64,000 nucleotides of DNA. It comes from Bradymonadia bacterium. GTDB taxonomy: Bacteria; Myxococcota_A; Bradymonadia; UBA7976; UBA1532. How positions within the stretch are numbered: the first letter of the stretch is position 1; every line of letters begins with the position of its first letter. The position numbers and the translations under genes were made by a program. Where the stretch lies: assembly GCA_046290225.1 (NCBI GenBank), contig JBKAGE010000035.1:224001-288000 (forward strand), in the 5' to 3' direction. This document shows positions 16,118-16,198 of this stretch, piece by piece. Below the pieces are notes generated by a model. That model saw only the letters and a program-made list of their open reading frames with translations, was not told where the DNA came from and did not search any database.

Positions 16118-16198
16118 GTGAGGCAGTGAGCTTCAGGGATACTTCATTTGACTGTTAATCAAACTCGAAACACACCCCCTGTTGCGTTTTCTCCTCGC
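16118..16198 (+). ncRNA. Minimal Y-RNA-like RNA 2 (terminal stem plus Asn-type anticodon hairpin)
   Basis: 5' GTGAGG pairs with 3' CCTCGC; GCAGTGAG...GATACTTC on 5' strand, TTCTC on 3' strand; internal CAGGG/CCCTG helix; hairpin TTTGA-CTGTTAA-TCAAA. Confidence 0.72.

Follow-up and report, generated by a model that had tools for sequence, protein, structure and literature searches.

Upstream of a Ro60-family gene in a Bradymonadia bacterium lies a short RNA-like unit whose apex looks like the anticodon arm of tRNA-Asn: what kind of RNA is this, and what could an anticodon arm be doing there? The unit, RNA 2, is the middle member of three RNA genes located between a sigma-54-type site and the Ro60/TROVE gene of the window, by which we mean the whole stretch of 64,000 nt that was analysed (Table 1). 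RNA 2 is very probably a Y-type non-coding RNA belonging to a Ro60 subfamily with a conserved handle of its own, and it is plausible that its arm would function as a bait.

Table 1. Features of the RNA array and of the adjoining Ro60-family gene, in coordinates of the window.
Feature	Positions	Strand	Basis
Sigma-54-type promoter site, TGGCAC-N5-CTGC	15913..15927	+	Pattern match
Leader hairpin upstream of RNA 1	15941..15968	+	Sequence
RNA 1, tRNA-order: acceptor, D arm, inserted handle, decayed Thr(GGU)-like loop, T arm	15974..16115	+	Rfam tRNA model
RNA 2, the unit under study, predicted length 81 nt: handle closed by the ends of the unit, anticodon arm as sole insert	16118..16198	+	Sequence, fold, pairing
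RNA 2: 5' strand of terminal stem and conserved box GCAGTGAG, predicted bulged C16124	16118..16130	+	Pair probabilities
RNA 2: 5' strand of inner helix (partner 16177-16181) and conserved TACTTC	16134..16145	+	
RNA 2: anticodon-arm look-alike, 5 Watson-Crick pairs, loop CUGUUAA, anticodon GUU at 16154-16156	16147..16163	+	
RNA 2: 3' strand of inner helix, TTCTC (16189-16193), 3' strand of terminal stem	16177..16198	+	
Short spacer hairpin in the RNA 2/RNA 3 interval	16207..16222	+	Sequence and fold
RNA 3, second tRNA-order RNA: same handle, intact Gly(UCC)-like arm	16227..16361	+	
MITE-like repeat with terminal inverted repeats, splits the array from the Ro60 gene	16483..16773	.	
Ro60/TROVE-family protein, 536 aa, presumed partner of RNA 2	16803..18413	+	Pfam, profile, model

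The two neighbours of RNA 2 are built in the order of a tRNA. RNA 1 scores 41.8 bits on the Rfam tRNA model, with an insert of 75 nt, has its handle at 16048 and does not encode CCA; its Thr(GGU)-like loop has no stem as scored by script, and the arm is decayed. In both RNA 1 and RNA 3 the handle sits between the D arm and the anticodon arm and the acceptor ends are open, and this layout is the unpermuted counterpart of YrlA-like forms. Direct reading places two bases between RNA 1 and RNA 2, in agreement with the start 3 nt after RNA 1 given by the initial annotation, and its observation that the shared motifs stand in opposite order was also correct, as GCAGTGAG precedes TTCTC in RNA 2 and follows it in RNA 1 and RNA 3. 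The word "permuted", which it applied to RNA 2, fits relative to these two, but RNA 2 itself has the ordinary Y layout and it is the neighbours that are in tRNA order. Judging from the pattern match, the sigma-54-type site would be the promoter of both the RNA array and the Ro60 gene. The MITE-like repeat, of which copies 97% and 94% identical over 291 nt are found on other contigs together with many weaker ones, is outside the RNA system and may affect read-through into the Ro60 gene. About 500 nt beyond this gene, on the minus strand (18914-19342), the window encodes the ribosome-rescue factor ArfB (NCBIfam 152 bits, above cut-off), of which no homologue was found across the 88 related loci tested. 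Seven ordinary tRNA genes are clustered at 4492-5344, with tRNA-Lys(CUU) in two identical copies. In the genome as a whole ARAGORN called 96 tRNA genes, many of which stand in additional arrays and have unusual anticodon arms (contigs C20, C37, C42 and C79), and one call has a CUA anticodon (contig C14).

The TROVE gene starts 605 nt downstream of RNA 2 on the same strand. Its product matches Pfam TROVE (E 4.8e-14) and has the helical TROVE ring and the vWA domain according to Pfam, profile and model. A profile built from 41 homologues found exclusively Ro60 proteins among solved structures, the Ro60 of Thermus phage phiLo ranking first (6e-61, compared to 2e-18 for human Ro60 and 1e-12 for Deinococcus Rsr), and all listed fold matches of the structural model (pLDDT 80.8) with E below 0.001 were Ro60. 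As the protein has no match in NCBIfam and does not reach the cut-off of the Rsr equivalog NF041674, we place it in a distant clade. The 60 relatives searched contained no close homologue, three of them giving merely weak matches. The genome has a second Ro60-like gene (contig C34, about 374900-377766; profile E 1.6e-34), upstream of which there are tRNA-Pro genes and three RNA-like units sharing a different handle with TTACTTC at the end; one of these units is in tRNA order with an Asp-like arm.

The 5' and 3' ends of RNA 2 had been said to pair, and they do so with a probability of 0.96-1.0 (16118-16123 with 16193-16198; ViennaRNA). D and T arms had been said to be absent, and no motif of either was matched within the unit. 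The box GCAGTGAG lies at 16123-16130 and, together with the 5' terminal strand, is the presumed contact of Ro60; AGTGA is invariant across 16 aligned units, and so is TACTTC (16140-16145), a third shared motif missed by the initial annotation. The fold as a whole modestly beats shuffles (z -1.79; 10 of 200 shuffles were equally good). The apex was described as a canonical tRNA-Asn arm, and TTTGA-CTGTTAA-TCAAA is present at its place, but the outer three pairs differ from those of the host tRNA-Asn and the arm pairs form with a probability of 0.16-0.17. A helix of 16147-16151 with 16165-16169 competes with the arm (0.66-0.79), and the minimum-energy fold is without it. Any 5-bp stem around a Y-U-N-N-N-R-N loop appeared in 135 of 200,000 shuffles of the 31-nt apex, and the Asn arm is unlikely to have arisen by chance. 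The 11-mer GACTGTTAATC has two copies in the genome of 8.58 Mb, one in RNA 2 and the other in a tRNA-Asn, and the identity covers the loop and its two closing pairs; a copying of the arm from the host tRNA-Asn has no support past these 11 nt. Neither is RNA 2 a gene or fragment of tRNA-Asn, as ARAGORN and Rfam are silent on it (Rfam at both thresholds), the identity is 11 nt and blastn returns the unit itself only. Two seawater metatranscriptome contig sets, in which the organism is barely represented (6-10% of words), gave scattered pieces and none on 16118-16198.

The handle consists of AGTGAR-N8/10-TACTTC, an inner helix and TTCTC, closed by the terminal stem, and is common to all three RNAs of the array. 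A scan of a single genome for each species yielded 69 loci that encode a relative of the protein (35-68% identity), most of them in Myxococcota and some in Chloroflexota and Deinococcus, and the same motifs recur upstream of these Ro60 genes (AGTGAR, 8-10 bases, TACTTC, and later the complementary strand and TTCTC). Of the window and the 64 loci with enough upstream DNA, 39 had a tRNA-order unit and 31 a hairpin unit in the pattern search, and a wider pattern matched 50 hairpin units in 49 loci. When 33 clusters of hairpin units were picked by their motifs alone, pairing not being a selection criterion, the five pairs of the terminal stem formed in 98.8% of cells compared to 47.3% with crossed partners, each position showing 4-6 types of pair. 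From the MAFFT alignment RNAalifold predicted zero pairs, and pair counts on a guessed register stayed at shuffle level (47.5% versus 46.9%); the 3' halves are out of register in the alignment, and the motif-anchored counts were therefore used. Among 400 genomes of the phylum the handle pattern had 21 matches outside the own genome, two of which carried the rest of the unit, both beside a Ro60 gene. The topology of a Y RNA, as originally assigned, thus stands, with paired ends, a conserved handle and an adjoining Ro60-family gene.

The TGGCAC-N5-CTGC pattern was present within 900 nt upstream of the Ro60 gene at 39 of the 64 related loci and at 1 on the opposite strand, many of these loci being close kin (about twenty are Sorangium). 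The fetched flanks of 88 loci contained RtcR in 3 and RtcB in 2, and both genes are found elsewhere in the own genome. The gap between the hairpin unit and the neighbouring tRNA-like RNA was 1-2 nt in 5 of 16 scored cases, window included, and by eye about 3 nt in Sorangium. What this one handle carries ranges from a complete tRNA body through a lone T arm or a lone anticodon arm to nothing at all, and this range of forms fits a reduction from a tRNA. Rfam found no family beyond tRNA and tmRNA at 15 related loci, and no match to YrlA.

Is the arm, then, a feature of its own? In the tRNA-order siblings an anticodon-like arm with varied anticodons follows directly after TACTTC, the place that the arm has in RNA 2. 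The Asn loop itself, the conservation of which had been the test proposed for it, is absent from the hairpin units of all 64 positional homologues. When we scanned for the 5' handle with an Asn loop, stem not demanded, there were 61 viral and 19 metagenome hits, giving 26 clusters with the exact loop, window included. With the window left out, a stem of at least 4 bp was present in 5 of 7 clusters with a closed handle and 4 of 5 with a T arm, compared to 1 of 13 without a handle (closed versus handle-less, Fisher p 0.007). The strict rule scored the handle of the window as absent (6 of 8 pairs), and p is 0.017 with the window counted as scored; L104 and L271, the two closed clusters in which no stem was present, resemble chance matches and were counted all the same. 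The five stems differ and stay complementary (GTAT/ATGC, ACAA/TTGT, GCTT/AAGC, CAAT/ATTG, TACAA/TTGTA) in units that are 36-58% alike and whose arms fold at 0.43-0.99. A Ro60 gene was in the fetched DNA of three of these five lineages, the remaining two being on contigs of 1.1 and 1.5 kb. One of the units stands a few bases after tRNA-Met and another before a tRNA-like gene.

The scans for any anticodon (three viral scans, 241 loci, 158 clusters) found a stem in 6 of 33 closed units (p 0.015) and 6 of 9 T-arm units (p 7e-6), compared to 5 of 116 others without a scored handle, a conservative test because 3 of those 5 show a 3' handle. The six closed units have six different anticodons, GUU being one, and one phage closed unit has the exact 5-bp stem of the window around an Arg loop. 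Arms on other copies of the handle are of Arg, Ile, Leu, Ser, Pro, Thr or Glu type; the metagenome scan was restricted to Asn and so cannot rank anticodons. At Ro60 loci unselected for their apex, a small arm that has a Pro, Thr or Glu loop and is closed by TTC from TACTTC was scored in 7 of 26 clusters, one of them (L015) an artefact that borrows inner-helix bases, versus 1.7 in shuffles that keep the 3' tail (none of 2000 reached 7), in a test designed after seeing the data. No arm was scored in 19 of these 26 clusters, a 4-bp stem is missing from 27 of the 33 closed viral units, for the selection of which a heptamer resembling a loop was required, and the broad viral scan gave mostly chance matches among the matches listed. 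Four viral handle units (L295, L359, L321, L329) have AUU or UCA anticodon-like loops on stems of 4-5 bp. From the counts of stems and loops in the three sets it follows that the arm shape recurs above chance, while most copies are without an arm and the anticodon is free to change. The interpretation of RNA 2 as an anticodon-only mimic is thus supported for the shape, which returns in other lineages with complementary changes in the stem, but a special standing of Asn finds no support.

How these parts would work together can be proposed tentatively; for the mechanism as a whole we see chances slightly below even. RNA 1, RNA 2, RNA 3 and the Ro60 gene would be transcribed jointly from a sigma-54 promoter, with RtcR as its probable activator once tRNAs are damaged. 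The site is there to be seen, and the control by RtcR is suggested by Salmonella, in which tRNAs cleaved in their anticodon loop turn on the rsr-yrlBA-rtcBA operon (Hughes et al., PMC7790460). tRNA-processing enzymes may excise the flanking tRNA-order RNAs and so free RNA 2, as the observed spacing would allow. Ro60 would bind the bulged terminal helix and protect the RNA, to which the protein family and the conservation of the handle point. The exposed arm might serve as bait for enzymes that recognise the anticodon loop alone, most likely anticodon nucleases, by competing for them or by holding them at the Ro60 ring, and the arrays present several different anticodons, Asn among them. RNA 2 may have originated as a tRNA-derived member that lost the T, acceptor and D parts and kept the arm after TACTTC, and intermediate forms are observed. 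The nuclease domain of colicin E5 acts on U-G-U loops. For this colicin a 17-nt anticodon arm is enough for cleavage, Asn arm included (PMC1635277), and YrlA has been raised as a competitive inhibitor of the nuclease by the authors of the Salmonella study (PMC7790460). Against a bait speak the arm being a minority fold in RNA 2, the anticodon not being conserved and the decay of the arm in RNA 1, and a catalytic nuclease would be expected to use up a cleavable bait. The handle box also differs from the known GNCGAA motif, and there is the second Ro60 gene in the genome.

The main rival to a bait is that only the handle matters, so that RNA 2 would be a plain gate or stabiliser of Ro60 like Deinococcus Yrn2 or YrlB and its arm a leftover of tRNA ancestry or a convenient cap. 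We regard this as rather unlikely, although it would agree with the apices of most orthologues, which are short (typically 13-20 nt) and have no clean arm, with the freely varying anticodons and the weak arm of RNA 2, with the position of this arm where the tRNA-order siblings keep theirs, and with the simple hairpin Y RNA in each of the three species studied (Chen et al. 2014, PMC4201824). Pure drift should, however, erase arms, and their recurrence therefore counts against it: five lineages with units 36-58% identical keep the exact loop within a complementary stem of altered sequence, the phage unit keeps the stem of the window around its Arg loop, and small arms exceed shuffles in the unselected loci. 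It is improbable that the arm is a tether, drawing a host protein that reads anticodon arms (a synthetase domain, a modifying enzyme like Tgt, an RNA ligase or PNPase) onto the Ro60 ring so that tRNAs are repaired or degraded, in the way that Yrn1 tethers PNPase. A single fixed partner would not explain the free change of anticodon, and no partner gene near the window was common to the 88 loci tested. The genome does encode Tgt, and the loop has U33-G34-U35, which would suit the UGU rule for this enzyme. Tethering is, moreover, an established role of Y RNAs (PMC4201824; bioRxiv 312249).

Alternatively, the arm could be a sensor, its cleavage leaving an end with a 2',3'-cyclic phosphate that activates RtcR or opens the Ro60 gate and so reports nuclease attack. 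RtcR binds 5' tRNA halves with such an end (PMC7790460), and RtcR and the sigma-54 site are linked to the Ro60 clade of the window. RtcR nevertheless preferred one tRNA half (PMC7790460), many copies of the unit are in viral contigs, and if RtcR drives RNA 2 its synthesis would follow induction only, which leaves a sensor very improbable. Hardly credible is a reader of codons, the arm pairing with AAY codons on the ribosome to block or park it. The geometry of the loop is tRNA-like, but RNA 2 has no elbow or acceptor end and a bound 60-kDa ring would be expected to hinder entry. Three viral units, furthermore, carry anticodons without a use in sense decoding by ordinary bacterial tRNAs under table 11: UCA in one, and in two AUU, which is not known to serve this purpose in such tRNAs. 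Returning to the arm as bait, a wider reading is that RNA 2 belongs to a widespread, undescribed branch of Ro60 particles with one docking handle and a changeable panel of tRNA parts, the smallest members being anticodon-nuclease baits that protect translation, RtcR-induced in bacteria and carried by phages too. This is doubtful, but if true it would be an RNA-based inhibitor system with a specificity that is reprogrammed via three bases.

Compared to the known Y RNAs, RNA 2 lies near a Ro60 orthologue on the same strand, has a long stem of paired ends with an internal loop and, at its predicted length, is within their size range of ~80-220 nt. The box AGTGAR resembles, but does not match, the binding motif of their 5' strand (GNCGAAN0-1G or GGUCCGA; PMC4201824). 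The hairpin Y RNAs, Yrn2 of Deinococcus and YrlB of Salmonella and M. smegmatis, are likewise ~80 nt long with paired ends, on the same strand beside the Ro60 gene and second to a tRNA-like RNA, and Yrn2 is cut from a precursor with a tRNA (PMC4201824). They differ in their handle motifs and in their apex, which is a small pyrimidine-rich loop or a T arm in place of an anticodon arm (PMC4201824); RNA 2 has no Rfam match, and its Ro60 is from a distant clade. YrlA (RF02553) shares with RNA 2 a Ro60-binding stem joined to a tRNA-mimic module and the sigma-54/RtcR context, but it mimics the D, T and acceptor arms without an anticodon loop (Wang et al., bioRxiv 10.1101/312249), of which RNA 2 is the converse. 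Chen et al. 2014 (PMC4201824) define YrlA by the presence of T, acceptor and D arms, and RNA 2 is not one: RF02553 gives 14.7 bits against a cut-off of 69, on a different stretch, and the T arm, closed acceptor stem and D arm are absent. Yrn1 of Deinococcus radiodurans is the only described Y RNA in which we found what may be an anticodon arm (5-bp stem) within the stem that binds Ro60; its "anticodon" loop is of 6 nt and accompanied by a T arm (PMC4201824), whereas the loop of RNA 2 has 7 canonical nt and stands alone. The So ce56 entry of the same paper (PMC4201824) is a different Ro60 gene from the one related to that of the window.

The Ro60 of phiLo is the closest solved protein to that of the window by sequence profile and fold, and its Yrl1 and Yrl2 are, like the RNAs of the window, small stem-bulge-stem RNAs upstream of the Ro60 gene, chosen by their CGAA motif and described in a main text in which the word "anticodon" does not occur (Hu et al., PMC12135203). 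By eye, no full handle was seen upstream of the phiLo Ro60 on the strand of the gene; on the strand opposite Yrl2 (locus L526, 2315-2345) there is a resemblance to the 5' handle (AGTGAA, six bases, TAGCTTC) with no 3' handle, which may be chance. For Bacillus phage G the 2014 table has a weak YrlA candidate (PMC4201824), which coincides in part with a permuted unit whose handle is of a variant family. The unannotated kilobase before the TROVE gene of this phage contains an array of at least four variant-handle units (locus L521, 1776-1939 and 3250-3940), and the 2014 list has only a permuted unit farther away (PMC4201824). Handle-like RNAs, two of them in tRNA order, also lie unannotated after the TROVE gene of Bacteroides phage crAss001 (locus L528, 3790-4420), a cultured phage and thus a tractable test system for handle RNAs. 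Phage TROVE proteins are mentioned elsewhere with a tRNA-like partner only, as far as that source goes (PMC7824862).

In the literature searched, which did not extend to some reviews of the main group, we found no description of arm-only Y RNAs; the novelty is not certain. RNA 2 would thus work like a Y RNA without being a member of YrlA, and its arm-only form would be, subject to the literature covered, a previously undescribed variety of Y RNA. The bacterial Y RNAs described so far imitate the elbow of a tRNA and have no anticodon loop, and a handle with an anticodon arm isolates one variable. As three bases could be changed without touching the presumed Ro60 binding, the proposal that Y RNAs inhibit anticodon nucleases (PMC7790460) becomes directly testable. 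The copy in the window adds a case from a bacterial genome, having the sigma-54 site, the links to RtcR and RtcB, and the tRNA-order and arm-only forms side by side.
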